A stretch of 64,000 nucleotides of DNA from an uncultured Methanosarcinales archaeon (GTDB taxonomy: Archaea; Nanobdellota; Nanobdellia; Woesearchaeales; UBA11576). The notes beneath the pieces were generated by a model that saw nothing but the letters and a program-made list of their open reading frames with translations, did not search any database and was not told the DNA's origin. Position numbers and translations under genes: made by a program. The stretch covers positions 72,616 through 136,615 of the forward strand of contig CAYOQS010000004.1 of NCBI GenBank assembly GCA_964406185.1, given 5' to 3'. Each line of letters opens with the position of its first letter. The stretch's first letter is position 1. Positions 7,378 to 34,267 of this stretch are shown here, in pieces.

Positions 7378-7410
7378 GTTTAAAAAATTTTGTATTACTT
7401 TTTAAAGCGT

Positions 7411-15417: not shown

Positions 15418-17232
15418 ATGTCTGATCATGAGAAGACTGTATTCGAAGCTTCTTGGGAGGTCTGTCACAAGGTGGGCGGTATCTATACCGTGGTGAAGTC
15501 CAAGGCGGCTCTTCTGGAAGAGGCTTATCCTAATTATTTCTTGATCGGCCCTTATTTTGAGGCCAATGCCGAGACTGATTTCGAGGAGGACACTCTTCCC
15601 CATGGTTTCCAGGAGGTTTTTGACGAGCTGAAAGAAGAAGGTATAGTCTGTCGTTTCGGGAGATGGCAGATCAAGGGCGAGCCCAGGACGGTACTGATAG
15701 ACTTTTCCGGTTTCAGGAGCAGGACTGACAGGATCAAGAAGGGCCTGTGGGAGGATTACAGCATAGACTCTCTTGGCGCGGGTGGTGAGTTTGATGAGGC
15801 GGTGGTCTGGGCAGCCGCTGCAGGAAGGTTCATAGAGCTTTTCGTGAAGAAGAAGCAGGAGCGCGGCGAGGCTGAGGGAGGGTTTGTCGCGCATTTTCAT
15901 GAGTGGCTCGCAGGTGCTGGCCTGCTCCACCTGAAGAAGAAGAAGGTCAAGGTCGGCACTGTCTTCACTACGCATGCTACCACTCTGGGCAGGACCCTCG
16001 CGGCCATGGGCAGGAACCTTTACCAGGAGATAGAGAGCATCAAGGCTGATGATGAAGCTAAGTCTTTGGGTGTCCAGGCGAAACACCTGACTGAGAAGGT
16101 CTGTGCAAAAGAGACTGATGTGTTCACCACGGTCTCCGAGATAACAGGGATAGAGGCTGAGCATCTGCTGGGGCGGAAGCCTGAGGTCCTTGTCCTGAAC
16201 GGTCTTGATATCGAGAAGATGCCTACGTACGAGGACGCAGCATATAAGCACAGGATCAACAGGGAGAAGGTGCATAATTTCCTGAGGTATTACTTCCTTC
16301 CATATTATTATTTTGACATCGAGGACACCCTGCTGCTTTTCATCGTGGGGAGGTATGAGTTCAAGAATAAGGGCATAGACCTTGTCATCGACGCTCTTGC
16401 AAAGCTGAACGATAAGCTGAAGGAGGAGGGTTCGAAGAGGACGGTGATATGCTTCTTCTGGATCCCGCGTGACGTGCACGGTGTTAGGAATGATATCTCC
16501 ATCAACAAGTCTGCGTACAGCACGCTGCATGGTTTTGTGGAGGATCACCTGCCGCACATCAAGGAGATGATCGTGACCAACATAATCAAGAGCGGTGTGG
16601 CAAAGCCTGATGTTGATTCGATAGGGTGCGATATCTTTGATGATGAGTTCAAGAGCAACATCAAGAGGCTTGAGGTAAACTTCGCGAAGAAAGGCAACCC
16701 TCCTATGTCGACCCATAACATACCTTATGAGAATGACGACCCGATAATACAGAATCTGTTGGGCAAGGGGCTTGACAACAAGGAGGACGACCCTGTAAAG
16801 GCCATATTCTATCCTATCTATCTCACAGGTGTGGACGGCCTCACGGACCTCTCATATTATGATGCGATGAACGCCTGCCATTTCGGGCTTTTCCCTTCGT
16901 ACTACGAACCGTGGGGTTATACTCCTTTGGAGTGCGCGTCGCTTGCAGTGCCCTCGCTGACCAGTGACCTCGGCGGTTTCGGCAGGTTCCTTGTGCAGAA
17001 GACGACAGGAACTTCAGGCATCTACGTGCTGAAGCGTTTCAAGAGGGACAGGGCTGAAGTGGTTGACGAGTTCGCTGATATCCTGTACAGGTTCTCCAAG
17101 TTCAACGCCAAGGAAAGGGTGCAGCAGAAGATACTGGCGAAGGAGATGGCTAATTATGCTGACTGGAAAGAGCTGATAAAGAATTATTTTGAGGCGCATG
17201 ACCTGGCCCTGAAGAAGGTGTCTGGAGGGTAA
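15418..17232 (+). CDS. Glycogen synthase, GT3 (eukaryote-type) family, copy 1
   Basis: SWEVCHKVGGIYTVVKSKA, HFHEWLAGAG, FTTHATTLGR, FTTVSEITGIEAEHLL, GRYEFKNKG and FPSYYEPWGYTPLE are near-identical to motifs I recall from yeast and animal glycogen synthase. Confidence 0.9.
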   Translation: MSDHEKTVFEASWEVCHKVGGIYTVVKSKAALLEEAYPNYFLIGPYFEANAETDFEEDTLPHGFQEVFDELKEEGIVCRFGRWQIKGEPRTVLIDFSGFRSRTDRIKKGLWEDYSIDSLGAGGEFDEAVVWAAAAGRFIELFVKKKQERGEAEGGFVAHFHEWLAGAGLLHLKKKKVKVGTVFTTHATTLGRTLAAMGRNLYQEIESIKADDEAKSLGVQAKHLTEKVCAKETDVFTTVSEITGIEAEHLLGRKPEVLVLNGLDIEKMPTYEDAAYKHRINREKVHNFLRYYFLPYYYFDIEDTLLLFIVGRYEFKNKGIDLVIDALAKLNDKLKEEGSKRTVICFFWIPRDVHGVRNDISINKSAYSTLHGFVEDHLPHIKEMIVTNIIKSGVAKPDVDSIGCDIFDDEFKSNIKRLEVNFAKKGNPPMSTHNIPYENDDPIIQNLLGKGLDNKEDDPVKAIFYPIYLTGVDGLTDLSYYDAMNACHFGLFPSYYEPWGYTPLECASLAVPSLTSDLGGFGRFLVQKTTGTSGIYVLKRFKRDRAEVVDEFADILYRFSKFNAKERVQQKILAKEMANYADWKELIKNYFEAHDLALKKVSGG

Positions 17233-17238
17233 GGTTGA

Positions 17239-18279
<1,041 letters not shown>

Positions 18280-18288
18280 ATCACGAAC

Positions 18289-19485
18289 ATGGTTGACCTG
18301 CCGACGCTGAGGAATACCTACATCGGTAAGAAGAAGGTTCTTGTCAGGACGGGTTTCGATGTCCCTCTTGATGATGAAGGGAGGATTCTTGATGACAGCA
18401 GGATAAGGATATCAGTCCCGACTGTCAGGTACCTTCTGGATCATGGCGCTGAGCAGGTCATTATAATGACCCATGTCGGGCGTCCTGGAGGAAAGAAAGA
18501 GGGCAGGCTTATGACTGACCGGCTTGCGGAGTGTTTTTCTGAGCTTCTGGGTGAGGATGTTACCAAGATTGAGGATCATGGCGAGAACGGCATTCCCGAT
18601 CCGAAAGTCGACAGGATAGTGATGCTGGAGAACCTGAGGTTTGACTCTAGGGAGAAGGATAAGGACCCTACGAAACGTGACGGGTTCGGGAAGCAGCTTG
18701 CAGGGCTTGCCGACATCTACGTGAATGATTCTTTCTCCACCTGTCACAGGGATCATGCTTCTATGACGAGCGTCCCTAAGTTCATACCCGGCTGTGTGGG
18801 TCTCAGCGTCGAGGAGGAGGTGTCCACGATCAGGGATGCGATGGACGGTCCTGACAGGCCTTTCGTCTCGATAATAGGGGGTGTGAAGGCTGACAAGCTG
18901 AACGCTGTCCGGAATATGCTGAAGAGGGTTGACATGCTGCTGTTGGCCGGCGCGCTGGCTTTCACCCTGCTCAAGCAGTTCGGTAAGGAGGTCGGTAAGA
19001 CCAAGGTTGATCTTGAGGGTCTTGATGGTTTTGAGGATGTGGTGCAGGAGCTGAAAGATAGCGATAAGATACTGCTTCCGATGGATTGTGTGATCGCTGA
19101 CCGTTTCGACAAGGATGCTGATTCAAGGATAGTGTCTGTGGATGATATCGATCCTGACTGGATGGCTCTGGATATAGGACCTAAGACAGTGCATGCTTTC
19201 AGGGAGGAGATAGGCAAGGCGCGGACAGTGGTGTGGAACGGACCTATCGGTGTTTTTGAGTTCGAGAGGTTCGCCAAGGGGACTGAGGAGGTCGCGCATG
19301 CTGTAGCGCATTGCGACGGGACGACTATTGTCGGCGGCGGTGATTCGGGCGCTGCTGTCGGGAAGCTGGGACTTAAGGATAGTATGACTCTTGTTTCTTC
19401 CGGCGGTGGTGCGAGCCTGCGGATGTTTGAGGGTAAGGAACTTGTCGCTTTAAAAGCGCTTGAAGGGCGGGGCGGTACTGAGTAG
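18289..19485 (+). CDS. pgk: Phosphoglycerate kinase
   Basis: LVRTGFDVPLD, HVGRPGG, NLRF, IIGGVKADK and GGGDS motifs. 398 aa. Confidence 0.93.
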   Translation: MVDLPTLRNTYIGKKKVLVRTGFDVPLDDEGRILDDSRIRISVPTVRYLLDHGAEQVIIMTHVGRPGGKKEGRLMTDRLAECFSELLGEDVTKIEDHGENGIPDPKVDRIVMLENLRFDSREKDKDPTKRDGFGKQLAGLADIYVNDSFSTCHRDHASMTSVPKFIPGCVGLSVEEEVSTIRDAMDGPDRPFVSIIGGVKADKLNAVRNMLKRVDMLLLAGALAFTLLKQFGKEVGKTKVDLEGLDGFEDVVQELKDSDKILLPMDCVIADRFDKDADSRIVSVDDIDPDWMALDIGPKTVHAFREEIGKARTVVWNGPIGVFEFERFAKGTEEVAHAVAHCDGTTIVGGGDSGAAVGKLGLKDSMTLVSSGGGASLRMFEGKELVALKALEGRGGTE

Positions 19486-19529
19486 AAAGCTATAAAAAGC
19501 GTGTTGCGCATAAGGTCTGCTGTGAGGAT

Positions 19530-20492
19530 ATGACTTCAAAAAAGGGGAAGAAAGGCAAGAAGAGATACGATGTGATTTCTGTCGGTTCTGCTACTATAGA
19601 TTGTTTTGTGAACCTGCCTGGTGGTTTCGGTAAGATTAGGCCGGGCAGCAAGATACTGATAGACAGCATAAGCCTTCTGACAGGGGGAGGGGGTACGAAT
19701 GTCGCTGTCGGGCTGAAGCGGCTTGGCATGAAGGTGGGCTACATCGGTGAGGTGGGTGATGACCATTCCGCCCACATAATCCGGAAGGAGCTTGAGGAGG
19801 AAGGTGTTGACTTCCTGGTGAAGCAGCACAGCAGGCATGAGACCGCATACTCTGTGATCCTTGAACCGAAGGGGAAGGACAGGGCGATCCTCGTATACAA
19901 GGGGGCGGCGAGCTATCTGCATCGGGAGGAGGTGCGTGACATCAACAAGTCTGCTGATTGGTTCTATTTCGCGAGCGTTATAGGCAGCTCTCTGAAGACG
20001 ATGTACTCTCTCGCGAACCATGCGAAGAAGAACAGGATAAAGGTCTTCTTCAACCCGAGCTCTTACATGATCGAAAAGCGCAAGAAGGAGATGGAGAAGT
20101 TGCTTTCTGTCGCGACCATACTTTCCGTGAACAAGGAGGAGGCGCAGAAGCTTGTGAAGAGCCGTTCTGACGATCCGAAGAGATTGCTTGAGAAGATGTT
20201 CAGCAGGGCTTCATGTATCTGCATCATCACTGACGGGAAGAGAGGTGCTTATGTCTATGACGGTGAGAATTTCATCCACAGGAAGGCGCGCAAGGTCAAG
20301 ACTGTCGATACCACCGGAGCTGGCGACTCTTTCAATGCAGGCTTCCTGGCAGGGTACCTTCAGAGGGAGGACTTCTCACGTAAGAAGCGTCTTGAGCGGG
20401 CGTTGAGGTCCGGGCTGTACAATGCAGAGTCTGTGATCAGGCATGTGGGTGCGAAGGAGGGACTGCTTACCCGGAGGAAGATGCCTGGGTGA
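19530..20492 (+). CDS. PfkB/ribokinase-family sugar (phosphate) kinase, candidate phosphofructokinase
   Basis: The N-terminal GSATIDCF...GGGGTNVA and the C-terminal DTTGAGDSFNAGFLAG are PfkB signatures. Substrate is inferred only from its position between pgk and fba. Confidence 0.8.
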   Translation: MTSKKGKKGKKRYDVISVGSATIDCFVNLPGGFGKIRPGSKILIDSISLLTGGGGTNVAVGLKRLGMKVGYIGEVGDDHSAHIIRKELEEEGVDFLVKQHSRHETAYSVILEPKGKDRAILVYKGAASYLHREEVRDINKSADWFYFASVIGSSLKTMYSLANHAKKNRIKVFFNPSSYMIEKRKKEMEKLLSVATILSVNKEEAQKLVKSRSDDPKRLLEKMFSRASCICIITDGKRGAYVYDGENFIHRKARKVKTVDTTGAGDSFNAGFLAGYLQREDFSRKKRLERALRSGLYNAESVIRHVGAKEGLLTRRKMPG

Positions 20493-20555
20493 ACGTCAAG
20501 GCAGTCCGTGAATAAAAAAGCGTGAAAAAAATAAGTGATGAGGTGTTCATTGAAG

Positions 20556-21476
20556 ATGCTGGTCTCAAACAAGAAACTTCAGTCAAATGCCCTGAAGGGC
20601 AGGTATGCTGTGGGAGCTTTCAACGTGTATGACATGGAGTCTGTGCAGTCTGTCGTGCAGGCTGCTGAGATTGAGAAGTCCCCTGCGATCATCGCTACGA
20701 CTGAGGGCGCTATCGAGTACGCTGGGCTCGGGTTCATCGCCAGGATCATAGAGTTGGCTACAAAGAAGTCCAAGGTGACGTATTCGATGCATCTCGATCA
20801 TGGGGAGAGCATGGACACTATCCGGAAGTGTATACGGATGGGATACACGTCGGTGATGATCGACGCGTCGCACAAGCCGTTCAAGGAGAACATCAGGACC
20901 ACTAAGCAGGTGGTCAGCTTCGCTCACAGGAAGGGTGTGTCTGTCGAGGCTGAGCTTGGAACTATCGGCGGGGTGGAGGATTCTGTCTCGACGAGGAAGA
21001 TACTGCTCACAGAACCTGAGGACGCAAAGGAGTTTGTGGAGAAGACTGGCTGCGACACGCTTGCCGTGGCCATCGGCACCAGCCATGGCGCTTACAAGTT
21101 CAAGGGAAAGTCTAAGCTGGATATTGATAGGCTGAAGGATATCAATAAGGTGGTGAAGGTGCCTCTGGTGCTTCACGGCGCTTCTGGCATCCCACAGTGG
21201 GTGGTGAAGAAGGCGACTCGTTTCGGTGCTGTGCTGGGCAACCCTCATGGTGTGGCGCCGGATGACATTAAAGCCGCTGTTAGGAACGGCATCACGAAGG
21301 TCAACATAGACTCTGACCTGCGCCTGACTTTTGACGCTACCGTCCGTGAGGTGCTGAAGAAGAAGCCTAAGGTGTTCGACCCGCGCAAGATACTCGGTCC
21401 GGCGAGGGAGGCCGTGACTGATATGGTGCGTTACAAGATGCAGCTGTTCGGCTCTTCCGGCAAGGCAAAGAGATAA
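20556..21476 (+). CDS. fba: Class II fructose-1,6-bisphosphate aldolase
   Basis: YAVGAFNV, HLDHG, GTSHGAYKF and VLHGASG. The start was moved to the ATG at 20556 (MLVSNKKL), which matches typical class II N-termini. Confidence 0.9.
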   Translation: MLVSNKKLQSNALKGRYAVGAFNVYDMESVQSVVQAAEIEKSPAIIATTEGAIEYAGLGFIARIIELATKKSKVTYSMHLDHGESMDTIRKCIRMGYTSVMIDASHKPFKENIRTTKQVVSFAHRKGVSVEAELGTIGGVEDSVSTRKILLTEPEDAKEFVEKTGCDTLAVAIGTSHGAYKFKGKSKLDIDRLKDINKVVKVPLVLHGASGIPQWVVKKATRFGAVLGNPHGVAPDDIKAAVRNGITKVNIDSDLRLTFDATVREVLKKKPKVFDPRKILGPAREAVTDMVRYKMQLFGSSGKAKR

Positions 21477-21534
21477 TTTATGGTATCGAGATAAGCCAAG
21501 ATTAAGAGGTGAAGCAGGACGCGGCTTAAAATCG

Positions 21535-22218
21535 ATGGTGGATGAAATGGCGATAGTGGTGATAAATTTCAAGACGTATGAGAAGGCGACCGGGGAGCGC
21601 GCTGTCACTCTTGCAAAGGCCTGTGAGAAGGTTGCGAAGGACACGAAGACTGAAGTGATTATAGCTGTGCAGAACGTGGATCTTTTCCATGTTTCAAGTG
21701 AGGTGTCCATCCCTGTTTTCGCTGAGCACATTGACCCTGTCAAGTACGGCTCCAACACTGGTAAGGATCTTGCAGAGGCGCTTGTCGATAACGGGGCGAG
21801 CGGCGTGCTTATCAACCATTCTGAGGACAAGGATGAGCTTGTGGATATCGAGGGGAGCATCGCACGTGCGAAGGATGTCGGTCTTCAGACCATCGTGTGC
21901 GCCCCGACTGCCAGGTCAAGTGAGGCGATGGCCGCTTTCGGCCCTGATTTTGTGGCTGTCGAGCCGCCTGAGCTCATCGGTGGTGATGTCTCTGTCTCGA
22001 AGGCAGAGCCTGAACTGATATCTGAGACCGTGAAGCGGGTGCATGAGGTTGACAGGCGCATACCTGTGCTCTGCGGTGCTGGCATAAAGGATGGTGAGGA
22101 CGTGAAGATAGCTATAGAGCTTGGCTGCGAAGGCATCCTGGTGGCGTCGGGCGTCACGAAGGCGGATGACCCTGAGAAAGCGCTGCGTGATCTCATAAGC
22201 GGCATCCCCGGCAGCTGA
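21535..22218 (+). CDS. tpiA: Triosephosphate isomerase (short archaeal type)
   Basis: VVINFKTYEKATG, LINHSE, AVEPPELIGG and CGAGI. 227 aa. Confidence 0.9.
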   Translation: MVDEMAIVVINFKTYEKATGERAVTLAKACEKVAKDTKTEVIIAVQNVDLFHVSSEVSIPVFAEHIDPVKYGSNTGKDLAEALVDNGASGVLINHSEDKDELVDIEGSIARAKDVGLQTIVCAPTARSSEAMAAFGPDFVAVEPPELIGGDVSVSKAEPELISETVKRVHEVDRRIPVLCGAGIKDGEDVKIAIELGCEGILVASGVTKADDPEKALRDLISGIPGS

Positions 22219-22253
22219 TTGGCCTGATCATTGTATTTTACAGGTGATTTTTT

Positions 22254-23462
22254 ATGTTGAACATCGATATTTCGCATATGAGGATAAGGAGATATTCTTC
22301 GCTCAAGTCCCGGCTGGCAAAGTTGCATAAGAGAGAGGTTCCGGTTTTCCAGAATTACAGGGAGGACATAGAGAGTATCAGGGAAGTGGTGAAGAGGTAC
22401 GGAAAGTACAGGAACCTGATAGTGATAGGGAATGGCGGCTCGAACACGTCCTTCAAGGCTTTTCATAGGGCGTTGGTTCCTCTCGATAACAAGAAGGGTT
22501 CGTTCATCCTGACGACTATGGAGCCTGACCTTCTTAATGAGCTGAAGAAGGTTTTTCCTAAGAGGAATACTCTGGTCATGCCTGTGAGCAAGTCGGGCAC
22601 GACTGTGGGTGTGATCGAGTCCATGCTCGCTTTCGATGGTTACAGGATGCTTCCGGTCACAAGCCAGGGGGAGGGTGCCCTTTCAGTTATCGCTGATAAG
22701 AACGGTTTTGACCTGATACCTCATCCTCCTGTGGGCGGGCGGTTCTCTGGCCTTACCGCTTCTGCTTTCGCGCCTTCTTTGTTCTTCGGTATCGATGTAG
22801 AGGCTATAGACAGGGGCGCGCGGAGCATGTATGGGAAGTGCGAGCCTTCTGTGCATATAGATCGGAACCCTGCACTGCAGCTTGCCGCTTCCCTTTTCCT
22901 GCTGGACAAAAAGGGTTATGATGAGATATTCTGCCCGATATATTCGCAGAGGATGGCAGGTTTCCAGAATCTCATAGTGCAGCTTATGCATGAGACCGTG
23001 GGGAAGAAGAGGAAGGGCCAGACGATTTTCTGCGCTGACGCTCCTGAGTCGCAGCACCATACGAACCAGCGTTTCTTCGGGGGGAAGAAGAACGTGTGCG
23101 GTGTGTTCGTGAGCGTCGAGAACCAGGAGGATTCTGACTCCAAGGTGAAGGTCCCGCCTGAGATCCGGCGGATCAAGGAGCGTGACGGGCGTATAGGTGA
23201 CATCAACGGCGTGCCTTACTGCAAGGCGCTGGAGTTCGAGTTCCGCGGAACTTATCAGGACGCGATAGATAAGAAGATTCCTGTTGCGCATATCGAGCTG
23301 GACAGGGTGACTCCCTTCAGCGTTGGTGAGTTCATCGCTTTCTGGCATTACGTGGCGGTGTACAGCGCGTGGCTCCGCGACCTTGACGCTTTCGACCAGC
23401 CTCAGGTAGAGTCTTCCAAGGAGATGAGTTTTGAGTTGAGGAAGAAGCACAAGAGCTTATGA
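22254..23462 (+). CDS. pgi: Glucose-6-phosphate isomerase (short ~400-aa PGI type)
   Basis: SIS-type motifs: LIVIGNGGSNTSFKAF, VSKSGTTVG, GGRFS. Size matches the ~400-aa archaeal PGIs. Confidence 0.8.
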   Translation: MLNIDISHMRIRRYSSLKSRLAKLHKREVPVFQNYREDIESIREVVKRYGKYRNLIVIGNGGSNTSFKAFHRALVPLDNKKGSFILTTMEPDLLNELKKVFPKRNTLVMPVSKSGTTVGVIESMLAFDGYRMLPVTSQGEGALSVIADKNGFDLIPHPPVGGRFSGLTASAFAPSLFFGIDVEAIDRGARSMYGKCEPSVHIDRNPALQLAASLFLLDKKGYDEIFCPIYSQRMAGFQNLIVQLMHETVGKKRKGQTIFCADAPESQHHTNQRFFGGKKNVCGVFVSVENQEDSDSKVKVPPEIRRIKERDGRIGDINGVPYCKALEFEFRGTYQDAIDKKIPVAHIELDRVTPFSVGEFIAFWHYVAVYSAWLRDLDAFDQPQVESSKEMSFELRKKHKSL

Positions 23463-23501: not shown

Positions 23502-24788
23502 TTATCTCTCCCAATTGACCCTGAGGAAGTGGGCTGAGCATGAGAAGCATGGGTCGTATGCCCTTATGAGTTTCTCTATCTCGAGGATGATTTTCTTTTC
23601 CGGAAGCTTGATGATGCTCGGCAGGTATTCGCGTATGTCTTCCTGCATGTTGAGCAGGTTCTGGCATGTGGGTGTTATGATGTTCGCTTTTGTTATGTCT
23701 CCTTTCTCGTTGATCTCGTAGTCGTGTATTAGTATTCCTCTTGGCGCCTCACCTATCCCCACGCCTCTGGACTTCCTGAATTTCAGTTCTTTGGGGTGTA
23801 TGGGCTCCTCTTCCTCAACCTTGAGTTTCCTGCATATCTCTATTGCCCTGTCTACGGTGTGGACGAGCTCTATCGCCTGGGCGAAGTTGTTCAGGAAGGG
23901 GTTGGTGAGAGGAAGCTTGTGTTTGGAGTCGTTGAGCAGCTTCTTCGCGTTCTTTGACAGGTATCTGTGGTTGTTGTTGAGCCTTGCCATGGAGCCGACC
24001 ATGTATCTCTTGTCTTTCTTGACCACGAAGTTGGCTGTGGAGTATGGCTCGTGGTATTCTTCAAGGTAGTCCTTGTATTCGTCTCTCCTGAAATCGTTGG
24101 ATTGTGACTTCAGGTCGCCGTAGAGCGTGGGCACTGTCTCTCCGTCGTGGAGTGAGAAGTATTCTGTCTCGCTCTCGAACTTTGGGTTCTTGAGCTTTGC
24201 GAATAGCCGTGCTGTGGCGATCGTGTCTGTTTGCGCGTCCTGCAGGTTCCTTCTCAGGTTGTCTATGTCTTCCTGTGATGGTATCCTGAGCATGCCCCCT
24301 ACCTGTGTCGAGACAGGGTGCATGTCTCTTCCCGCGACCTGGTGTATGAGTTCGTTGCCGAGCTTTGTGAGCTTGAGCGCCCTTGCGAGCTCTTTCTTGT
24401 ACTTGGAGGCCATGGCAAAGGCTGATTCGTATCCCATGTAGTCAGGCAGTGCAAGGAAGTAGAGGTGTGTCGCGTGGCTCCTTATCCTCTCGCCGAGTAT
24501 TGTCAGCTCTCTCAACATGTTTGTCTGTTCTGTGGGCTTTATCCCGAGTGCGGATTCGACTGCCTGTATAGATGTTATGTAGTGTATGCAGCTGCATATG
24601 CCGCATATCCTGGAGGTCATCTCAGGGGCTTCGTAGCATTTCCTTCCTTTTATGAGCCCTTCAAAGTATCTTGATCCTTCTATAGATCCAAGTTCGCATT
24701 TCTTTACCTCCCCACCTTCTATGGATAGGGTGAGGTTTGCGTGGCCTTCTATCTTTGTTATGTGTTCGAGCTTGATCGTCTTTGTCAT
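23502..24788 (-). CDS. hydA: [NiFe] hydrogenase large (alpha) subunit, group 3b-like operon
   Basis: The N-terminal RICGICSCIH and the C-terminal DPCFSCSAH are Ni-binding motifs, followed by an 8-aa tail (FLRVNWER) that would fit endopeptidase processing. Last gene of a beta-gamma-delta-alpha operon. Confidence 0.9.
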   Translation of the reverse strand: MTKTIKLEHITKIEGHANLTLSIEGGEVKKCELGSIEGSRYFEGLIKGRKCYEAPEMTSRICGICSCIHYITSIQAVESALGIKPTEQTNMLRELTILGERIRSHATHLYFLALPDYMGYESAFAMASKYKKELARALKLTKLGNELIHQVAGRDMHPVSTQVGGMLRIPSQEDIDNLRRNLQDAQTDTIATARLFAKLKNPKFESETEYFSLHDGETVPTLYGDLKSQSNDFRRDEYKDYLEEYHEPYSTANFVVKKDKRYMVGSMARLNNNHRYLSKNAKKLLNDSKHKLPLTNPFLNNFAQAIELVHTVDRAIEICRKLKVEEEEPIHPKELKFRKSRGVGIGEAPRGILIHDYEINEKGDITKANIITPTCQNLLNMQEDIREYLPSIIKLPEKKIILEIEKLIRAYDPCFSCSAHFLRVNWER

Positions 24789-26344
24789 TTTCTCGCTGTC
24801 TTTGTCATGTTTCTTCTGAGCCGTCCTTTGAGGCTTTTCAGGAATGATCCTGATTGTTTTTTGGGTGCTGTTTTATTTTTTGACCCTGCCTTCTTCTTGG
24901 GCCTGTTCTTTGCGTTCTTCTTTTGGGGCGAGTTCTTTTGGGGTCTTGATTTCTTCTTTGGAGCTGTTTTCTTTCTTGCCTTTTTTGTCTTCATCCCGCT
25001 CCTGGCTGCTGAACTCTTGTTGCGTTCATTTTTTGCCGAAGGACTTTTCTTTACCTTTCCTATTGATGGTTTCGTCGTCTTTTTATTTTTATTTTTTGCA
25101 GTTTTCTTCGGCGCTTTCTTCGGCTTTGGTCTTTTGGCGGCTTTTTTCTTTTTCGTCTTGGCCTTCTTCTTCACTTTCTTCTTGGCCTTCTTGACCTTCT
25201 TCTTAGCCTTCTTTGTGGCTTTCTTGGCCTTCTTCTTCACTTTCTTCCCGGCCTTGCTGACCTTCTTCTTGGGCTTCTTTGTCTGCTTCTTTTTATTTTT
25301 AGGTTTCTTCTTTGTCTTTTTCTTCGCCTTCGGTGTCTTCTTAGGCTTCTTCTTTGGTTTTTTCCTCTTTATCTTTCTGGGCTTGACTGTCTTAAGTATC
25401 GGCTTTTCCATCTGCATTCCGACGAATGTCCTCATCCTCTTGCGTATGTGGTCTTTGGTGTATCCTTTCTGCTCTAGAAGTTTTACCATCAGAGGTATGT
25501 TGGCGTCCGGTGTGGATCCTCTGCAGCCCCAGCACTCGAATCCGCCGTTGGTGCAGATTGCGTTGCAGCCCCCCCGGGTTATGGGTCCGAGGCACATCTT
25601 GTTGTCGTCAAGAAGGCACCTGTTCTCATTGAGCCTGCACTCGACGCATACTGGTCTGTCATAATCATAGGGATTCTTTCCGAGGAGAAGGTCTTTTATG
25701 AATGATGATATCTGCTGCTTGTCCGGAGGGCAGCCGGGCAGGTAATAATCGACCTTGACGTGTTCGTTTATCGGCGTTGCCGGCTGGTCTGCTATCTCCT
25801 TTATCTTCTCGTATACCTGTGATGAGTATTTGGATGTCTCTATGAAGTTCCTGTATGCTGGTACGCAGCCGGTGCACGCGCATGCGCCGAGAGCTACCAG
25901 TATCTTTGATTTGTCCCTGACTTCCTTGAGCACTTCAAGATCATCATTGCTCGCCACGAGGCCTTCGACAAAGGCTATGTCGAGCGTCCTGTCCTCTTTC
26001 CTGTCCTTGACAAACCTGAATGCTTTGATGTCTATGTGCTTAGCAAGATGGAGCAGTTCGTCCTCGTTGAACACAAAGCTAAGAAGGCAGCCGTTGCACC
26101 CTGTGAGGTCGTAGAATCCGACACCGGGTCTGTCGTTGCTGCCTTTCTGGCCTGGCCGGGTCTTTGCCTTCTTGGTTTTTACTTGTTTGGCAGGGCTCTT
26201 TTTGCGGCTCTTCCTCACATCCTTGCTGCTGTCCCTGCTGCTGTCCTTGATGCCATCCCTGCTGCCGCTCTTTTTTCCATTTTTGGCGCCTTTCTTTTTC
26301 GCAGCTTTTTTTCCGGTATTCTTGTTTGACTTCTTGTTTGCCAT
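24785..26344 (-). CDS. hydD: [NiFe] hydrogenase small (delta) subunit with ~70-aa N-terminal and ~200-aa C-terminal poly-lysine extensions
   Basis: The core (residues ~72-315) has TGCNGC, ALGACACTGCVP, GCPP and GGCNAICTNGGFECWGCRG Fe-S motifs. It is colinear with the 273-aa paralogue at 36170-36991. The stop overlaps the hydA start (ATGA at 24785-24788). Confidence 0.85.
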   Translation of the reverse strand: MANKKSNKNTGKKAAKKKGAKNGKKSGSRDGIKDSSRDSSKDVRKSRKKSPAKQVKTKKAKTRPGQKGSNDRPGVGFYDLTGCNGCLLSFVFNEDELLHLAKHIDIKAFRFVKDRKEDRTLDIAFVEGLVASNDDLEVLKEVRDKSKILVALGACACTGCVPAYRNFIETSKYSSQVYEKIKEIADQPATPINEHVKVDYYLPGCPPDKQQISSFIKDLLLGKNPYDYDRPVCVECRLNENRCLLDDNKMCLGPITRGGCNAICTNGGFECWGCRGSTPDANIPLMVKLLEQKGYTKDHIRKRMRTFVGMQMEKPILKTVKPRKIKRKKPKKKPKKTPKAKKKTKKKPKNKKKQTKKPKKKVSKAGKKVKKKAKKATKKAKKKVKKAKKKVKKKAKTKKKKAAKRPKPKKAPKKTAKNKNKKTTKPSIGKVKKSPSAKNERNKSSAARSGMKTKKARKKTAPKKKSRPQKNSPQKKNAKNRPKKKAGSKNKTAPKKQSGSFLKSLKGRLRRNMTKTARK

Positions 26345-26369: not shown

Positions 26370-27209
26370 TCAGTCGTTCTTGTATTTGCTGATCTCGTCG
26401 TAGCGGAATACCGGCCCGTCGAGGCAGGTGTATTTTCCGTGTATCATGCAGTGGCCGCAGAGACCTAGGGCGCAGTGCATGAGGCGTTCCGTGCTTATGT
26501 ATATCTGATCTTCCTTGAAACCCTTGTTCTTGAGTATACCTATCGTGATCTTCATCATTATCGGCGGTCCGCAGATGAACACTATCTTGTTCTCCGGGTT
26601 GAGCTTCGCCTTCTCCACCAGGTTTGTGACGAAGCAGACGTCGCAGGATGTCTTGACGTGTTTTGGGTTCTTGTCGACGCTGACATTGACATCGTACTTC
26701 CTTTTCCATTGGCGGATATCTTCCTTGAAAAGGATGTCTTCAGGCGTGCGGAAGCCGAAGTACGCCTTGACCTCTGTGAAGCGGTCCTTGTTCTTGTCGA
26801 CATATGCGAGTATCCCTTTGAGCGGTGCGACTCCGCTGCCTCCTCCGATGAGTATCAGGCTCTTGCCTGCAAACTTGTCCATAGGGTATCCGTTGCCGTA
26901 AGGGCCTCTTATGTATAATGTGTCCCCTTTCCTGAGGTTTGCAAGATGGTTGGTGACGTTCCCTACCTCGCGTATGTTCAGGTCGAGATGGTCTTCAGAG
27001 AAAGAAGCGACCGATATCGGCGCTTCGCCTATGCCTGGTATGGATACCTGGAAGAACTGTCCTGGCTGGTAGCTGCCTTTGTGGTCTGTGCGGAGGAGGA
27101 AGCAGTCCGGGCTTTCCCTCTTGTACCCTGTGATCTTAACCTGCTTTGGGAGATATGGGTTGTGCGGCTTGGCTTCCGGCTCTTCGCGTCTTGTTTTTGT
27201 CCTTGGCAT
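26370..27209 (-). CDS. hydG: Hydrogenase gamma subunit (FAD/NAD(P)-binding, 2Fe-2S; PyrK/FNR-like)
   Basis: GQFFQVSIPG, IGGGSGVAPL and the C-terminal CALGLCGHCMIHGKYTCLDGPVF cluster. Confidence 0.85.
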   Translation of the reverse strand: MPRTKTRREEPEAKPHNPYLPKQVKITGYKRESPDCFLLRTDHKGSYQPGQFFQVSIPGIGEAPISVASFSEDHLDLNIREVGNVTNHLANLRKGDTLYIRGPYGNGYPMDKFAGKSLILIGGGSGVAPLKGILAYVDKNKDRFTEVKAYFGFRTPEDILFKEDIRQWKRKYDVNVSVDKNPKHVKTSCDVCFVTNLVEKAKLNPENKIVFICGPPIMMKITIGILKNKGFKEDQIYISTERLMHCALGLCGHCMIHGKYTCLDGPVFRYDEISKYKND

Positions 27210-27277: not shown

Positions 27278-28252
27278 TTATTCTTCTTCAGGCATGTCGT
27301 TGAGTATCTGGACCCAGTTTATCCTTGTCGGGCAGCCTCTTATGCATCTTCCGCATCCTGTGCAGAGGTTCATCCCGTGCCTTTCCTTGAAGTACTGGAT
27401 CTGGTGGTATATCCTGTGCTTGAACCTGTCCTCACGGGTCTCGCGGAAGATGTGGCCTCCCGCCACTTTCGTGAAGCATTGGAGCTGGCATGATGCCCAG
27501 TTCCTTCTTCTCTCGAAGGTATTAAGTTCAGCGTCTGCCTTGTCGTAAAGGTCGAAACAGTAGCAGCTGGGGCATAGCGTGACGCATGCTGCGCAGCTGA
27601 AGCATATGTCGACCCCTTTTTTCCAGTCAGGATGGTCGTAGTAAGGCGCTATATCCCTCTTGTTGAGCTGGAGATGTGTCTCTATCCTCCTGTCCTCTGG
27701 CCTGAGGAACTGGTCCGTGTCCCAGAAGTACTTTCTGTACCTCTCGACGAAGTTTCGCCCCCTCTCTGATCCTATCTCGACGAGGTACGCGTCTTCCTTG
27801 TCGTAGAGCATGAGGTCGTAGAAGTCTCCCAGGTCCATCGAGCTGCAGAAGCAGTAATCGTCGTAGGGTTCCTTGCAGTGCAGGCCTATCAGAACTGTCC
27901 TGTCCCGTTCTTCTTTGTAGTACGGGTCGTGTATCTCCTTCAGGAACATTATGTCCTGCCTTTTTATGCTGTTGAGGTCGCATCTCTTGAGCCCTATCAT
28001 CACTCTCTGTTTCTTTTCTGTATGCAGCTCCGGCTTGATGTGCTTCCCGTTCTCTGTCCTGAAAAGCAGCTGGCTTTTCTTGAAGAAGAACTTCTTTGCG
28101 GGAAAGTAGGCGTGGAGGTCAAGCTGTATAAGTGAAAGGTCCTTTATCTGCTCGAACCTGGACTCCTTTTCCTGGACCGGCGCGACTAGCTCGTTGTACC
28201 TCATTACATCTGTCAAGAAATCATTGAATGACGACTTGTTGATCTTCAGCAT
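27278..28252 (-). CDS. hydB: Hydrogenase beta subunit (4Fe-4S protein, AsrA-like)
   Basis: CFSCAACVTLCPSCYC and CTGCGRCIRGCP ferredoxin-type motifs. First gene of the hydBGDA-order operon. Confidence 0.85.
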   Translation of the reverse strand: MLKINKSSFNDFLTDVMRYNELVAPVQEKESRFEQIKDLSLIQLDLHAYFPAKKFFFKKSQLLFRTENGKHIKPELHTEKKQRVMIGLKRCDLNSIKRQDIMFLKEIHDPYYKEERDRTVLIGLHCKEPYDDYCFCSSMDLGDFYDLMLYDKEDAYLVEIGSERGRNFVERYRKYFWDTDQFLRPEDRRIETHLQLNKRDIAPYYDHPDWKKGVDICFSCAACVTLCPSCYCFDLYDKADAELNTFERRRNWASCQLQCFTKVAGGHIFRETREDRFKHRIYHQIQYFKERHGMNLCTGCGRCIRGCPTRINWVQILNDMPEEE

Positions 28253-28277: not shown

Positions 28278-28601
28278 CTACTCGACCTCGACCTCTTTTA
28301 GCACGATGTCCTTCCCTTCTGTGATGCGGGGCACTTCGCCGCATTCCGGGCACGTATATACAGAGTGTCCGTGGCTGTGCTCCTGTATCGTTGGCTCACC
28401 TTGGTACCCGCATGAGCAGTCGGCTTTCGCCTTCTTCCGGGTCAGGGTCAGTTTCCAGTCCGGCACAAGGCTCTCTAGGGTCTTTTTTAGCTCTTCAAGG
28501 GGCACGTGCCCCAGGTCCCCCACTTCTACGGTGATACCCTTGACTTTTCCTTGTTTTTTTGCCGCTCCTATGATATCTTGGCTTATAAGGGTATCATGCA
28601 T
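28278..28601 (-). CDS. hypA: Hydrogenase nickel-insertion protein HypA
   Basis: MHD N-terminus (Ni site) and CSCG...CPECG Zn site. 107 aa, directly upstream of hydB. Confidence 0.75.
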   Translation of the reverse strand: MHDTLISQDIIGAAKKQGKVKGITVEVGDLGHVPLEELKKTLESLVPDWKLTLTRKKAKADCSCGYQGEPTIQEHSHGHSVYTCPECGEVPRITEGKDIVLKEVEVE

Positions 28602-28693: not shown

Positions 28694-28744
28694 GCGCATC
28701 AATCATTGCACCGATCATTGCGCCGATCATTGCATCAATCATCG
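28694..28744. repeat. 12-bp tandem repeat ATCATTGCNCCG, about 4 copies
   Basis: atcattgcaccg atcattgcgccg atcattgcatca atcatcg. It straddles the HMG-CoA reductase stop codon (28735-28737). Confidence 0.85.
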
Positions 28745-30030
28745 AAAGGTCGCTTATTATGCAGCGCGAGATGTCCTCTGTTTATACCATCCGTCACAAG
28801 AGTGTGTAGTGCGGCAAAGTTGTTCGCAAGACCTGTAGCCGCCACTATCTCCTGCAGCTCTTTGGCTGAAGGCCCGCCCAGTATGTCCAAGCCTATCCTG
28901 GCAAAAGGAAGGCCTGTAGCTCCACGTATCGTTCCCAGAGCCAGGGGTATCTCCATGTTACCTTCTAGATGATCTCCTGAACATTTCCATTCAGAAAGTG
29001 CTTGATACCTGCCGTTCCTTGAAGCGAAGGCATGTGCTCCTGCCTCAAGTGCTCGCCAGTCATTGCCTGTCGCGAGCGCGACTGCATCGATCCCGTTCAT
29101 TATCCCTTTGTTGTGCGTAGTAGCGCGTTCAACATCATCTATTCCTAGCTGACCCAGGTCAAGGAACACATCAAGGACCTGCTCTGCATCAGGACAATTA
29201 TGCTGAGGTCTTGCGAGCTCACGTATAGGGATCAGTATCTTGGACTTGACTATAGCCCTGTCAGCATAATTTGTGAGTATGCCTGTCACTACCTTTCCGG
29301 CTGTGATCTGCTCGACTTCATCCTTGACCGCCTCGCACATCTGGTTGACGACGTTCGCACCCTGTACGTCTCTGGTGTGGACGACCAGGTCGAGTATGAT
29401 CCTTCCATCTTCGCGTAGCTTTATCTTATGGTCATACATATACGTATGTTTGTGGTCTTCATTTGCGAGCGCGTACAATGAGGTGATATGCTCTGCCAGC
29501 GCAGAACTTGCCTTATCAGGATAGTCGATATCCTTGATGTATATCTGTCCTTTGAGTGAATTGCCGAGCGAGGTAGACTCCATCCCCCTATACCTGCCTT
29601 CAAGGAATCCTCTGCTCGCCGCCGCGACGATAGAAGGCTCTTCTGCCCGCATAGGTATGAGGTATTCTCTGCCGTTTATCTTTGCGTTTGTTGCTATACC
29701 CATCGGAGGGTCGCATCCTGCTATGCAGTTCTCGATGTATTTGTCTGCAGTCTCGCTCGGAAAATAGTTCATAGGGCTCTTCTTCAGTTTATCTGCCTGT
29801 TCTGAAGTAAGACCTGTCTCTTCTGCAACGCGGTAGATCATATAGTCGGTGAAGCTGTATCGAAGCAGTTCTGCATCCGAACCAGATAGGCCTGTCAGCG
29901 TCGCGACTGTCTCTATCCTCTCATCTATGCTCAGCTTGTGGAACCCGGGCAACCTGGACGTCCTGACTCCTTGCGGAACTTCATGACTTTCGTACGCTCT
30001 CATCACCTGGCGCAGAAGTAGATAGGTCAC
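28735..30030 (-). CDS. hmgA: HMG-CoA reductase (class II-like)
   Basis: ENCIAGCDPPMGIATNAKINGREYLIPMRAEEPSIVAAAS, DAVALATGNDWRA and GTIRGATG. The EEPS(I/V)VAA pattern is the class II form as I recall it. Confidence 0.88.
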   Translation of the reverse strand: MTYLLLRQVMRAYESHEVPQGVRTSRLPGFHKLSIDERIETVATLTGLSGSDAELLRYSFTDYMIYRVAEETGLTSEQADKLKKSPMNYFPSETADKYIENCIAGCDPPMGIATNAKINGREYLIPMRAEEPSIVAAASRGFLEGRYRGMESTSLGNSLKGQIYIKDIDYPDKASSALAEHITSLYALANEDHKHTYMYDHKIKLREDGRIILDLVVHTRDVQGANVVNQMCEAVKDEVEQITAGKVVTGILTNYADRAIVKSKILIPIRELARPQHNCPDAEQVLDVFLDLGQLGIDDVERATTHNKGIMNGIDAVALATGNDWRALEAGAHAFASRNGRYQALSEWKCSGDHLEGNMEIPLALGTIRGATGLPFARIGLDILGGPSAKELQEIVAATGLANNFAALHTLVTDGINRGHLALHNKRPFDD

Positions 30031-30096
30031 TTAAATAAGTTGCTGATCGGTCAGGATAGTTAGGGCAGATATGATAATTTAAAAAAGAAGGAGATT

Positions 30097-32508
30097 CTAC
30101 TTTATCCCTAACTGTTTCTCTTTCTCTGCGATAGCCAGGGTCGTCTTCACGACTGTATCAGGGTTCAGGCTCATGCTGTGGATTCCCGCTTCAACAAGGA
30201 ACTCAGCGAAGTCCTCGTAATCAGAAGGTGCCTGCCCGCATATGCCAATATATTTCCCCTTTGAGTTCGCGACGTCGATGACCTGCTTTATGAGCTTCTT
30301 CACCGCTTCGTTCCTCTCGTCGTATATCTCTGCTACCAGTTCGCTGTCCCTGTCGAGACCGAGTGTGAGCTGTGTCAGGTCGTTAGAACCGATGGAAAAC
30401 CCGTCAAAGATGTCCAGGAACTCCTCTGCCAACAGTACATTGGATGGTATCTCGCACATGCCGATGACTTTCAGGCCGTTCTCGCCCTGCTTCAGTCCGC
30501 TCTTGTCCATCTCTGCTATGACCTTCTTCGCCTCGTCTATCGTCCTGCAGAATGGTATCATTACCTGTAGGTTTGTGAGCCCCATCTCGTTCCTGACTTT
30601 CAGCACGGCCCTGCACTCGAGCGCAAAGGCTTCCCTGAACTTCTCTGCGTAGTATCTTGACGCTCCTCTCCAGCCTATCATCGGGTTGTCCTCTTCGGGC
30701 TCGAATTGCCTGCCTCCTACGAGGTTGGCGTACTCGTTGCTCTTGAAGTCGCTGAACCTGAGGATCACGTCTTTCGGGTAGAATGCCGCGGCTATCCTTG
30801 CGATGCCCTGTGCGAGTTTGTCTACGTAGAACTCGACCTTGTCGTCATAGCTTGCGGTCAGCTGTTCTATCTCCTTCTTTGTCTTCTCGTCCTTGAGCTT
30901 GTCGAAGTGCATCAGGGCGAGCGGGTGTATCTTTATGAATGAGTTTATTATGAATTCCTCTCTCGCGAGCCCCACCCCCTTGTTCGGGAGGAAGCTGAAG
31001 TTGAATGCCTCTTCAGGGTTACCCACGTTCATCATTATCTTTGTCTTGGTATCTGGCATGTCCTTCAGGTCGGTCTTCTGTACCTCGAACTCCTGCTCCC
31101 CGTCATAGATATACCCTTCGTCTCCCTGTGAGCAGTCCACGGTGATCTTCTGTCCTGATTTGATCACGCTGGTGGCTTTCTGCGTGCCTACGACGCAGGG
31201 TATGCCGAGCTCCCGGGATATGATTGCTGCGTGGCAGGTCCTCCCTCCCCTGTTAGTCACGATCGCTGAGGCTATCTTCATGATCGGTTCCCAGTCAGGG
31301 TCGGTCATGTCTGTGACGAGTACCTGTCCTTTCTTGAACTCGTGTATGTTCTGCACGTCCTTTATGACATTGGCTTCGCCGGCTCCTATCTTCTCTCCGA
31401 CGCTCCGTCCTGTCACCAGTACTTCTCCTTTGCTCTTGAGGTGGTAGTCTTCTATGGTGTTGATGTCCCTCTGGCTCATGACCGTCTCAGGTCTTGCCTG
31501 GACTATGAACAGCTCTCCGCTATTTCCATCTTTTGCCCATTCCATGTCCATTGGCTTGAAGTGGCCTGCCTTTTCTGAGTAGTGGTCTTCTATTATGCAT
31601 GCCCAGTTCGCGAGTGTCAGCGCTTCATCGTCTGTTATTGAGAACTTGTTCCTGTCGTCCTGGCTCACCTGGACGTTTTTCGTGGGTTTTATGCCGCTGT
31701 CTGTGTAGATCATCTTGACGGCTTTGTCGCCGACTTCCTTGAATATTATTGATCTGAAGCCTTTCTTGAGAGTGGGTTTGTGGACGTAGTACTCATCAGG
31801 ATTCACAGCTCCCTGGACCACGTTCTCTCCGAGTCCGTAGGCGGATGTTATGAAGACGACGTCCTTGAACCCTGATTCTGTGTCTATTGAGAACATGACT
31901 CCTGCTGATGCCCTGTCGCTCCTGACCATCTTCTGCACTCCTATGGAGAGCGCTACGTCGAAGTGGTCGAAGCCTTTGTCCACACGGTAGCTGATAGCCC
32001 TGTTGGTGAAGAGTGATGCGAAGCATTTCCTGCATGCGTCCATGAGCATCTCGGGGCCTCTGATGTTGAGGAATGTCTCCTGCTGTCCTGCGAAGCTCGC
32101 GTCCGGGAGGTCTTCTGCTGTGGCGCTGCTCCTGACCGCCACATCGACGTTCTCTCCGTAGTGTTTGCAGAGGTTTTCGTACGCTTCTCTTATCTTGTCC
32201 CTGAGGTCTTGGGGAAATTCTGCGTTTAGGAAGAGGAGCCTTACTCTCTCGCCGCGTTCTGCGAGGTTTTTCATGTCGTGCGTGTCCAGGTCGCTCAGCG
32301 CATCCCTTATCTTTTCTTTTATCTCTGTCTTCTCAACGAGATAGTTGTATGCGTGCGCAGTGACTGCGAAGCCGTTGGGGATCTTTACACCTTTTGCTGT
32401 GAGGTTCTTGTACATCTCTCCCAGGCTTGCGTTCTTGCCTCCGACCTGCGGCACGTCTTCTATGCCCAGCTGGTCGAACCATAGAATCAATTCTTTAGAC
32501 TTGTCCAT
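30097..32508 (-). CDS. ppsA: Phosphoenolpyruvate synthase (pyruvate, water dikinase)
   Basis: VGGKNASLGEM, the phospho-His loop TNRGGRTCHAAIISRELGIPCVVG, and the C-terminal PEP-utilising domain GSNDLTQ. 803 aa. Confidence 0.93.
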   Translation of the reverse strand: MDKSKELILWFDQLGIEDVPQVGGKNASLGEMYKNLTAKGVKIPNGFAVTAHAYNYLVEKTEIKEKIRDALSDLDTHDMKNLAERGERVRLLFLNAEFPQDLRDKIREAYENLCKHYGENVDVAVRSSATAEDLPDASFAGQQETFLNIRGPEMLMDACRKCFASLFTNRAISYRVDKGFDHFDVALSIGVQKMVRSDRASAGVMFSIDTESGFKDVVFITSAYGLGENVVQGAVNPDEYYVHKPTLKKGFRSIIFKEVGDKAVKMIYTDSGIKPTKNVQVSQDDRNKFSITDDEALTLANWACIIEDHYSEKAGHFKPMDMEWAKDGNSGELFIVQARPETVMSQRDINTIEDYHLKSKGEVLVTGRSVGEKIGAGEANVIKDVQNIHEFKKGQVLVTDMTDPDWEPIMKIASAIVTNRGGRTCHAAIISRELGIPCVVGTQKATSVIKSGQKITVDCSQGDEGYIYDGEQEFEVQKTDLKDMPDTKTKIMMNVGNPEEAFNFSFLPNKGVGLAREEFIINSFIKIHPLALMHFDKLKDEKTKKEIEQLTASYDDKVEFYVDKLAQGIARIAAAFYPKDVILRFSDFKSNEYANLVGGRQFEPEEDNPMIGWRGASRYYAEKFREAFALECRAVLKVRNEMGLTNLQVMIPFCRTIDEAKKVIAEMDKSGLKQGENGLKVIGMCEIPSNVLLAEEFLDIFDGFSIGSNDLTQLTLGLDRDSELVAEIYDERNEAVKKLIKQVIDVANSKGKYIGICGQAPSDYEDFAEFLVEAGIHSMSLNPDTVVKTTLAIAEKEKQLGIK

Positions 32509-34059: not shown

Positions 34060-34267
34060 TTTGTACAGCCTCTTCCCACGCTTCAAGGCTCTTCTTTGCC
34101 TCTTCCTCTGGTATCTTCGCGACGATGATCTTTGCAGACATGAAGACATAGTCTCCTACTTTGTAGTCTCCCTCGATTATACCTGCCTCTCGGGTATCAC
34201 AGGGATACTCAATAGTAGCTTTGTCACCTTCTATCTTCACTATCTTCCCGGGCATCGCAAGACACAT
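34049..34267 (-). CDS. hypC: Hydrogenase assembly chaperone HypC
   Basis: Canonical MCLAMPGKIV N-terminus and VGDYVFM. 72 aa. Confidence 0.85.
   Translation of the reverse strand: MCLAMPGKIVKIEGDKATIEYPCDTREAGIIEGDYKVGDYVFMSAKIIVAKIPEEEAKKSLEAWEEAVQNVA

Follow-up and report, generated by a model that had tools for sequence, protein, structure and literature searches.

A clade-conserved lysine-rich tail with an amphipathic end on the small subunit of a woesearchaeal group 3b [NiFe]-hydrogenase

The question raised by this locus is why the small subunit of a hydrogenase should carry a long lysine-rich tail. Group 3b [NiFe]-hydrogenases are taken to be freely soluble in the cytosol, and the gene considered here, located in a stretch of 64,000 nucleotides (hereafter the window; positions 72,616 to 136,615 of contig CAYOQS010000004.1), is predicted to encode the delta (small) subunit of such an enzyme, of the sulfhydrogenase type and putatively NAD(P)-linked. 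An earlier note on this DNA, made from the sequence alone, had pointed out that only the middle part of the 519-aa product matches a 273-aa paralogue in the same window, and this is borne out by the pairwise alignment, in which the paralogue, serving as an internal control, aligns to delta residues 72-307 only (41% identity). Comparison with related genomes indicates that the C-terminal tail is a real, clade-conserved and selectively maintained extension rather than an artefact.

The only Pfam match of the delta protein is Oxidored_q6 (PF01058, the NuoB-type small-subunit domain; residues 83-218, E 1.6e-26). The best NCBIfam models are ShyD (E 4.5e-58) and HydD (E 1.3e-56), both at residues 74-310, with VhuG and FrhG well behind; the scores of 197 and 192 bits do not reach the equivalog cut-offs of 460 and 500. 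Judged by domain, operon and cysteine pattern, the protein is a divergent member of the family and not an equivalog of the Thermococcales proteins. The closest solved structures are those of sulfhydrogenase I delta (9e15, 9nez and 9e1j; 256-266 aa, E ~3e-53, best 2.9e-53), and these align with query residues 73-311 only. Domain, family and structure matches (Pfam, NCBIfam and PDB) are all confined to residues ~73-311 and leave both extensions uncovered. The core shows invariant Cys, Gly and Pro columns in an alignment of 31 sequences (A1), in which the cysteine ligands of the Fe-S clusters at positions 83, 86, 155, 160, 205, 233, 236, 243, 251, 260, 264, 271 and 274 (C83 to C274) are invariant or nearly so.

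The C-terminal tail (residues 316-519) was found to contain 45% Lys, 10% Ala, 8% Pro, 7% Thr and 6% Ser, with acidic residues scarce (about 1% Asp plus Glu), and has a net charge of +103 over 204 aa. Several (S/T)PxK-like units occur in it, and a recount of residues 321-410 gave 56 Lys among 90 residues, the very figure reported before. The N-terminal extension (residues 1-71) has 31% Lys, 14% Ser and 10% Gly with a net charge of +22; the Lys/Ser/Gly-rich character that the earlier note ascribed to ~70 N-terminal residues is thus confirmed, and the extension turns out to be peculiar to this genome, the close orthologues having just 1-26 residues ahead of the conserved VGFYDL. The DNA of the tail is 52% A and 6.5% T. 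No internal stop interrupts the Lys frame, and the other two sense frames are closed by 8 and 9 stops, which suggests that the open Lys frame is meaningful and not a by-product of base composition. These stops, together with the tailed orthologues described below, agree with the previous argument that a continuous frame and an ATGA overlap with the next gene make an artefact unlikely.

A structure prediction with AlphaFold2 (AF2), based on the 31-sequence alignment, gave a mean predicted local distance difference test score (pLDDT) of 52.6. Residues 1-68 and most of the C-terminal tail were predicted as coil (pLDDT ~40), and two helices were predicted in the tail, at residues 374-398 (KKAKK repeats) and at residues 501-518 (the terminal motif, local pLDDT up to about 59). 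On reading the sequence, no twin-arginine translocation (Tat) motif, signal peptide or transmembrane segment was found. Export via Tat or a signal peptide was rejected because the N-terminus lacks a hydrophobic region preceded by an RRxFLK-type motif, and a transmembrane anchor because neither extension has a hydrophobic stretch.

In order to see whether relatives carry the tail, a comparison that the earlier note had proposed, homologues were searched with the core only and their lengths and sequences were then inspected. All 30 complete nearest orthologues (59-76% identity in the core, 50-65% over the whole length; 320-451 aa), drawn from NCBI, JGI, ENA and Logan assemblies, carry a Lys-rich C-terminal tail of 81-207 aa after the RTF motif, and 88 more distant relatives (248-301 aa) have at most 37 residues past RTF and no tail. 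One more tailed delta subunit, of 468 aa with a tail of 204 aa including 91 Lys, was found in a single-cell amplified genome (L006) when species-representative genomes were scanned. In a neighbor-joining tree of the core columns, no tail-less protein falls within the single clade of the 30 tailed ones (bootstrap 12/30). The organism belongs to the Woesearchaeota/Nanoarchaeota (DPANN), judging by the source names of the homologues.

Two deeper tailed members were recovered among representatives at 50% identity, namely P0121 (542 aa, tail about 280 aa), which shows the same synteny (locus L083, 6001-7629 for the delta gene), and P0131 (tail about 210 aa). The first halves of these two tails are rich in K/E/R/A/M and resemble a charged single helix or spacer, and both tails still finish in a hydrophobic-basic motif (KKKSFFKKITGLAKR; MTILGRIAALGKRKKK). 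The tail in the window is the longest of the close-orthologue set, that of the more distant P0121 being longer. Across the clade the tails range from 80 to 280 aa, with 35-60% Lys and a net charge of roughly +40 to +125. The representative library also included P0150, a natural delta-alpha fusion of 696 aa.

The interiors of the tails cannot be aligned between orthologues although their composition is kept, and both the junction with the core and the extreme C-terminus are conserved. This pattern points to selection rather than drift. The C-terminus carries a candidate membrane-targeting helix, a basic-hydrophobic amphipathic motif that spans the last ~13-16 residues in 31 of the 32 tailed proteins and would form a helix of about 12 residues; examples from orthologues are SFVGMLKGKLKKK, SFLSMLKGRFKK, SLFKLRFKKK, GFFGMLNKLKKK and SFFKKITGLAKR. 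At least three F/L/I/M/W residues are present among the last 16 in the same 31 of 32 proteins, as compared with 7.6% of 2,753 interior 16-mers, and the density of bulky hydrophobic residues is 0.26 at the tail terminus vs. 0.06 in the interior. The sole exception, P0023, is truncated at the end of its contig. The hydrophobic residues also tend to share one helical face, with a resultant of 0.596 against 0.391±0.035 after permutation, a value reached in none of 500 permutations, which is not a strict probability since the sequences are related. Synonymous differences occur in the DNA encoding the motif, and the spacing between the motif and the alpha start extends from an ATGA overlap up to 21 nt; both observations argue for a constraint that acts on the peptide rather than on a ribosome-binding site. 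The conserved terminal helix, which the earlier note did not mention, makes a membrane or a specific partner more likely as the target of the tail, and plain binding of nucleic acid less likely. In practical terms, the tail together with the ending S-F-x-x-M-L-K-G-K-L-K-K-K may serve as a sequence marker for one hydrogenase clade of the Woesearchaeota.

In the window protein seven further residues, MTKTARK, stand behind the motif. An 11-nt repeat, ATGACAAAGAC, occurs at 24798-24808 and again, 20 nt apart, at 24778-24788; the second copy is the alpha start (MTKTIK...), and the first lies in frame within delta and encodes its last residues. The orthologues end right at ..KLKKK. The MTKTARK end has the appearance of a small duplicated piece of the alpha 5' end, the former stop codon of delta having been lost. 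Elsewhere in the window, an edge-cut open reading frame (ORF) at positions 1-427 of the minus strand encodes, within its N-terminal 141 aa, a MinD/FtsY-like KKGFFSRLFSKKGK in a low-complexity context rich in E/K/P/Q; a homologue search with this 141-aa fragment gave no matches, so that it provides no reference within the genome for a membrane-targeting sequence.

Tandem repeats are found in the DNA of both extensions, those of the Lys tract being listed in Table 1 and that of the N-terminal extension consisting of two 24-nt units at 26220-26272 (Tandem Repeats Finder). The tails of orthologues P0006 and P0013 show clear internal peptide repeats. The tail lengthens and shortens through tandem duplication, always in frame. 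Its codon usage is ordinary in that the AAA:AAG ratio for Lys in delta (31:61) is near that of the other genes (114:350). The longest run of A among the 92 Lys codons is 6, as against an average of 8.8 in synonymous shuffles, of which 2.1% do as well. This avoidance of A-runs is individually significant in one of six orthologues, and is weak evidence for selection on faithful translation.

The earlier note had suggested that lysine-rich tails are a lineage-wide trait, with further cases in the window on a TrmJ-like enzyme and at the PfkB N-terminus. This was not upheld. When the 142 ORFs of the window and of eight loci of the tailed clade were compared, a density of 12 or more Lys in 30 residues was reached by delta alone, and the two other cases are far milder. 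The SpoU/TrmJ-like RNA methyltransferase (61711-62736, minus strand) has a basic C-terminal tail of ~108 aa with (KSVP/KSLP)x5 repeats and at most 10 Lys in 30 residues, plausibly an RNA-binding extension, and the PfkB N-terminus has merely MTSKKGKKGKKR. A proteome-wide Lys bias was ruled out by the genome GC content of ~50% and by the delta-only outcome among the 142 ORFs. The trait belongs to one gene and not to the proteome. Outside this set of ORFs, locus L033 encodes a 130-aa winged-helix-like (wHTH) protein (10497-10889, minus strand) whose C-terminal tail is very dense in lysine (20 Lys in 30 residues), which suggests that H1-like tails on DNA-binding proteins exist in these archaea too.

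Polybasic extensions were also found on other subunits, or on the other end of delta, in loci of other DPANN lineages. They are N-terminal on gamma in L012 (2702-3640), L024 (5053-5952) and L032 (5000-6007), N-terminal on alpha in L033 (~6745-8210; 63 aa, with an ATGA overlap with the delta stop), and N-terminal on delta in L028 (5770-6762), P0129/L082 (6001-6945) and P0134 ((AKPK)n-like). In this survey of N-extensions only Lys-rich cases were kept; many of the apparent extensions among the longest ORFs were rejected as gene-calling artefacts, namely out-of-frame Arg-rich overlaps with the upstream gene. A bacterial case is the P0130 cluster of candidate division WOR-3, 17 near-identical members from several sources, in which a group 3b delta ends in a basic stretch of about 45 aa (…GKPRQKKVRKPVAAGKAKKKTASKSPKAKSGRKR). 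The hydrophobic terminal motif is absent from all of these, i.e. from the gamma, alpha and delta N-terminal extensions and from the WOR-3 delta tail. On the sequences at hand, a polycationic appendage appears to have been gained convergently on one enzyme in several lineages. One possible explanation, that the tail compensates for an acidic complex, was ruled out, since alpha, beta and gamma together carry practically the same net charge whether the locus is tailed (+20, n=8) or tail-less (+18, n=57); instead, a mildly basic complex is turned into a strong polycation by the tail.

The operon has the order HypA-beta-gamma-delta-alpha (Table 1), and the order of its four subunit genes recurs in L001, L082 and L083. 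The delta ORF begins 25 nt past the gamma stop, and its own stop overlaps the alpha start as ATGA. The flanks encode glycogen synthase, GAPDH, PGK, PfkB, TIM and PGI (15418-23462) on one side and PPDK and HMG-CoA reductase (28735-32508) on the other; FBP aldolase is likewise found among the glycolysis and glycogen genes beside the operon in the window and orthologous loci, and this neighborhood is also present in L001 and L083. Woesearchaeota group 3b enzymes have been described as putative cytosolic, NADPH-oxidizing and H2-evolving hydrogenases (PMC8421398), and the location of the operon beside glycolysis and glycogen genes would fit such a role. A second hydrogenase locus (34906-36991, minus strand) consists of small and large subunits only, with no beta or gamma upstream and no tail, and near it (33607-34863) are the gene of a probable maturation protease and further small ORFs.

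Table 1. Position and basis of the features of the delta gene, its operon and its paralogue in the window
Feature	Position	Strand	Basis
Delta (small) subunit gene of the predicted group 3b [NiFe]-hydrogenase, 519 aa with both extensions	24785..26344	-	ORF list, Pfam, NCBIfam, PDB
N-terminal Lys/Ser/Gly-rich extension, residues 1-71	26132..26344	-	Composition, orthologue comparison, AF2
Delta catalytic core, residues 72-315, net charge 0, conserved Fe-S cysteines	25400..26131	-	31-sequence alignment, paralogue comparison
Core-tail junction EKPILKTVKPRKIKRKK	25358..25408	-	Alignment A1, consensus ..RTFAGMxxEKPxLKxVKPxKxKK common to the tailed clade
C-terminal polycationic tail, residues 316-519, mostly disordered by prediction	24788..25399	-	Composition, open frame, AF2, orthologues
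Tandem duplication in the Lys tract, 66-nt unit x1.9 (90% match) and 33-nt unit x3.5	25156..25282	-	Tandem Repeats Finder
Terminal basic-hydrophobic amphipathic motif GSFLKSLKGRLRRN, residues 499-512, candidate membrane-targeting helix	24809..24850	-	Residue counts, helical-face test, AF2
Seven extra residues MTKTARK beyond the terminal motif	24788..24808	-	Duplicated copy of the alpha 5' end
Alpha (large, [NiFe]) subunit	23502..24788	-	Pfam NiFeSe_Hases; NCBIfam HydA/ShyA, E ~1e-91
Gamma subunit (FAD/NAD(P)-binding, Fe-S)	26370..27209	-	Pfam NAD_binding_1, DHODB_Fe-S_bind, FAD_binding_6; NCBIfam HydG/ShyC/AsrB-like
Beta subunit (4Fe-4S dicluster, AsrA/ShyB-like)	27278..28252	-	Pfam Fer4_22; NCBIfam ShyB, E 4.3e-59
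HypA nickel metallochaperone, first gene of the operon	28278..28601	-	Pfam HypA, E 3.3e-10; equal position in L001 and L083
Small-subunit paralogue without tail, 273 aa	36170..36991	-	Pfam, NCBIfam, pairwise alignment

The earlier note had proposed that the tail tethers the enzyme to a polyanion, be it nucleic acid, polyphosphate or an acidic envelope or host-cell surface. Polyanion binding still appears to be the most sensible class of function, with the envelope or host surface unlikely for a protein that has no Tat motif, signal peptide or transmembrane segment. Within this class we tentatively favor, at somewhat less than an even chance, a reading in which a disordered polycationic leash and an amphipathic end anchor hold the hydrogenase at an anionic surface, the likeliest being the inner face of the membrane. 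The terminal helix would insert its F/L/I/M face into the cytoplasmic leaflet and the long poly-Lys stretch would bind anionic lipid head groups electrostatically, so that in these very small fermentative cells an enzyme known elsewhere as soluble would be peripherally attached to the membrane. The version of the module in this genome would be an enlarged one, with the longest C-terminal tail of the close set plus the additional N-extension of +22. Binding to anionic membranes is typically achieved by pairing a polybasic segment with a hydrophobic element. We rank the membrane first because of this combination, because the sole sequence-specific element of the tail is a basic-hydrophobic helix of the MinD/FtsY class, and because an archaeal precedent exists in Haloferax MinD4. 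Several points weigh against this reading. A membrane-targeting sequence of 12 residues would suffice alone, and some 100 charges in 200 residues exceed known anchors and would be expected to bind RNA, DNA or polyphosphate avidly. The extensions elsewhere that have no motif suggest that charge, not the anchor helix, is the common denominator. The window motif has seven residues behind it, and a scan of the Eisenberg moment, which the hydrophobic counts and the helical-face permutation replaced, peaks at the terminus in 3 of 31 tails, the periodic K/V/A repeats also scoring high. A bootstrap of 12/30 gives modest backing to the idea that the tail arose once, and anionic lipids in the membranes of these archaea are assumed.

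Alternatively, the tail may act as a binder of the H1/PhaF/AlgP type that attaches the hydrogenase to nucleic acid (nucleoid or rRNA) or to polyphosphate, so that the enzyme would be retained, partitioned or clustered, perhaps together with the neighboring glycolytic enzymes in a condensate, the motif then being a secondary protein contact. We consider this the main rival, possible though on the unlikely side. The K/A/P/T/S composition with almost no D/E is like that of H1 C-terminal domains, (S/T)PxK-like units are present, the charge is far beyond the need of membrane binding, and both the convergent gamma, alpha and delta N-extensions without a hydrophobic motif and the similar tail of the L033 wHTH-like protein are in keeping with it. 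Bacterial precedents for Lys-repeat tails with affinity for DNA or polyphosphate granules are Streptomyces TopA (PMC5714199), PhaF (PMC7590123) and AlgP, which is found on polyphosphate granules (PMC9239181). Nevertheless, the hydrophobic extreme C-terminus conserved in 31 of 32 proteins would be left unexplained, Pfam gives no homology to an H1 or Hc1 domain, other proteins of these genomes are not similarly decorated (142 ORFs), and an NAD(P)H:H+ oxidoreductase has no obvious gain from a place on chromatin. Membrane tethering and binding of nucleic acid or polyphosphate are compatible and not mutually exclusive. It is less probable that the appendage is an electrostatic antenna for polysulfide, NAD(P)H or acidic ferredoxin-like carriers, a module for solubility or assembly, or an entropic bristle or control of oligomerization, and we would assign this only a small chance. 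Sulfhydrogenase-type enzymes (Pyrococcus SHI/SHII) do use anionic substrates, the use of whichever terminus is free suggests that the charge of the whole complex matters, and the K/E/R-rich, helix-like first halves of the P0121 and P0131 tails resemble spacers. Such roles are entirely speculative, however, with no known precedent in a hydrogenase; a length varying from 81 to 280 aa fits poorly with a defined geometry, and the terminal amphipathic motif is again unexplained.

It is also conceivable, if improbable, that the tail is a non-adaptive low-complexity expansion, produced by slippage in AAG/AAA-rich DNA at an exposed terminus and tolerated because it is harmless. This would account for the tandem repeats in both extensions, the highly variable length, the unconserved interior and an N-extension unique to this genome. 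On the other hand, the tail is in frame in every complete member of the clade despite 50-65% whole-length (59-76% core) identity, and conservation of the terminal motif requires translation of the whole tail; the avoidance of poly-A tracts, the stops in the other sense frames and the repeated, independent rise of similar extensions on the same enzyme are likewise hard to reconcile with it. An error of assembly, frameshift or gene calling is extremely improbable. The exact window protein was not found in the public protein collection, and the duplicate of the alpha start 20 nt away and the N-extension are specific to the window sequence; yet the architecture recurs, with conserved synteny, in a single-cell genome and in over 30 independent assemblies, the tail has a single open frame and the operon is compactly spaced.

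A broader proposal, to which we give a low probability, is that ultra-small, fermentative DPANN archaea have repeatedly evolved a polycationic localization module for an NAD(P)-linked hydrogenase, on different subunits in different lineages and completed here by a membrane-targeting helix. H2 would then not be made by a freely soluble enzyme but in an organized way at the membrane, at the site of contact with a partner cell that consumes H2, or on a scaffold of nucleic acid or polyphosphate. Woesearchaeota metabolism has been reconstructed on the assumption of a cytosolic group 3b enzyme (PMC8421398), and a clade-wide charged appendage with an anchor-like end would imply a localized one. This may bear on how very small cells dispose of glycolytic reducing equivalents and hand H2 over to partners, and on how enzymes gain new locations via low-complexity expansions. 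If true, the broader proposal would represent a new principle of spatial organization for a hydrogenase regarded as cytosolic and possibly offer a handle on interspecies H2 transfer in DPANN symbioses. The tail could be a natural portable tag combining polycation and anchor. Such extensions are hidden by annotation pipelines and trimmed alignments. The literature search returned no paper joining hydrogenase, small subunit and lysine-rich, and nothing relevant on lysine-rich tails in DPANN or on disordered, positively charged or polybasic hydrogenase extensions, in line with the earlier note, which knew of no such tails on hydrogenase subunits.

The closest known system is the delta subunit of the group 3b sulfhydrogenases (Pyrococcus/Thermococcus SHI HydD and SHII ShyD), with which the window protein shares the core fold, the Fe-S cysteines and a beta-gamma-delta-alpha operon with HypA. 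Solved and typical sulfhydrogenase deltas are 240-285 aa long and stop no more than about 35 residues after RTF, whereas the length of the window delta is doubled by its +22 and +103 extensions. The terminal motif is comparable to the membrane-targeting sequences of MinD, FtsY and FtsA in being a short terminal helix with one hydrophobic face and Lys/Arg flanks, conserved independently of the linker. Examples are the sequence KGFLKRLFGG of E. coli MinD (PMC5471200), the basic lipid-binding segments of FtsY (PMC5094494) and, in archaea, Haloferax MinD4, in which a long low-complexity extension ends in a membrane-targeting sequence (bioRxiv 10.1101/2020.04.03.021790). The likeness implies no homology with these proteins, and the delta motif differs in that it is found on a redox enzyme and follows an extreme polycation instead of a neutral or acidic linker; membrane binding is suggested by analogy. 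The same leash-plus-anchor logic may be likened to the polybasic-plus-hydrophobic anchors of eukaryotes.

With the H1 C-terminal domain, Hc1, HupB, Streptomyces TopA, PhaF and AlgP the delta tail has in common the K/A/P/T/S composition, predicted disorder, evolution by tandem repeats and attachment to an unrelated domain. The likeness to H1 and Hc1 drawn in the earlier note holds for composition and disorder but does not extend to domains, as the Pfam search revealed no linker-histone or Hc1 homology in the tail. H1, Hc1, HupB, TopA, PhaF and AlgP act on DNA or on nucleoid-positioned granules and, unlike the delta tail, have no conserved hydrophobic terminus; we know of no nucleic-acid role of a hydrogenase. 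The small subunits of group 1 [NiFe]-hydrogenases have a Tat signal and a C-terminal hydrophobic transmembrane helix. The delta protein has neither a Tat motif nor a transmembrane segment and its enzyme would stay in the cytoplasm, but in group 1, as proposed here for the woesearchaeal enzyme, it is a C-terminal appendage of the small subunit that sets the location of the hydrogenase.

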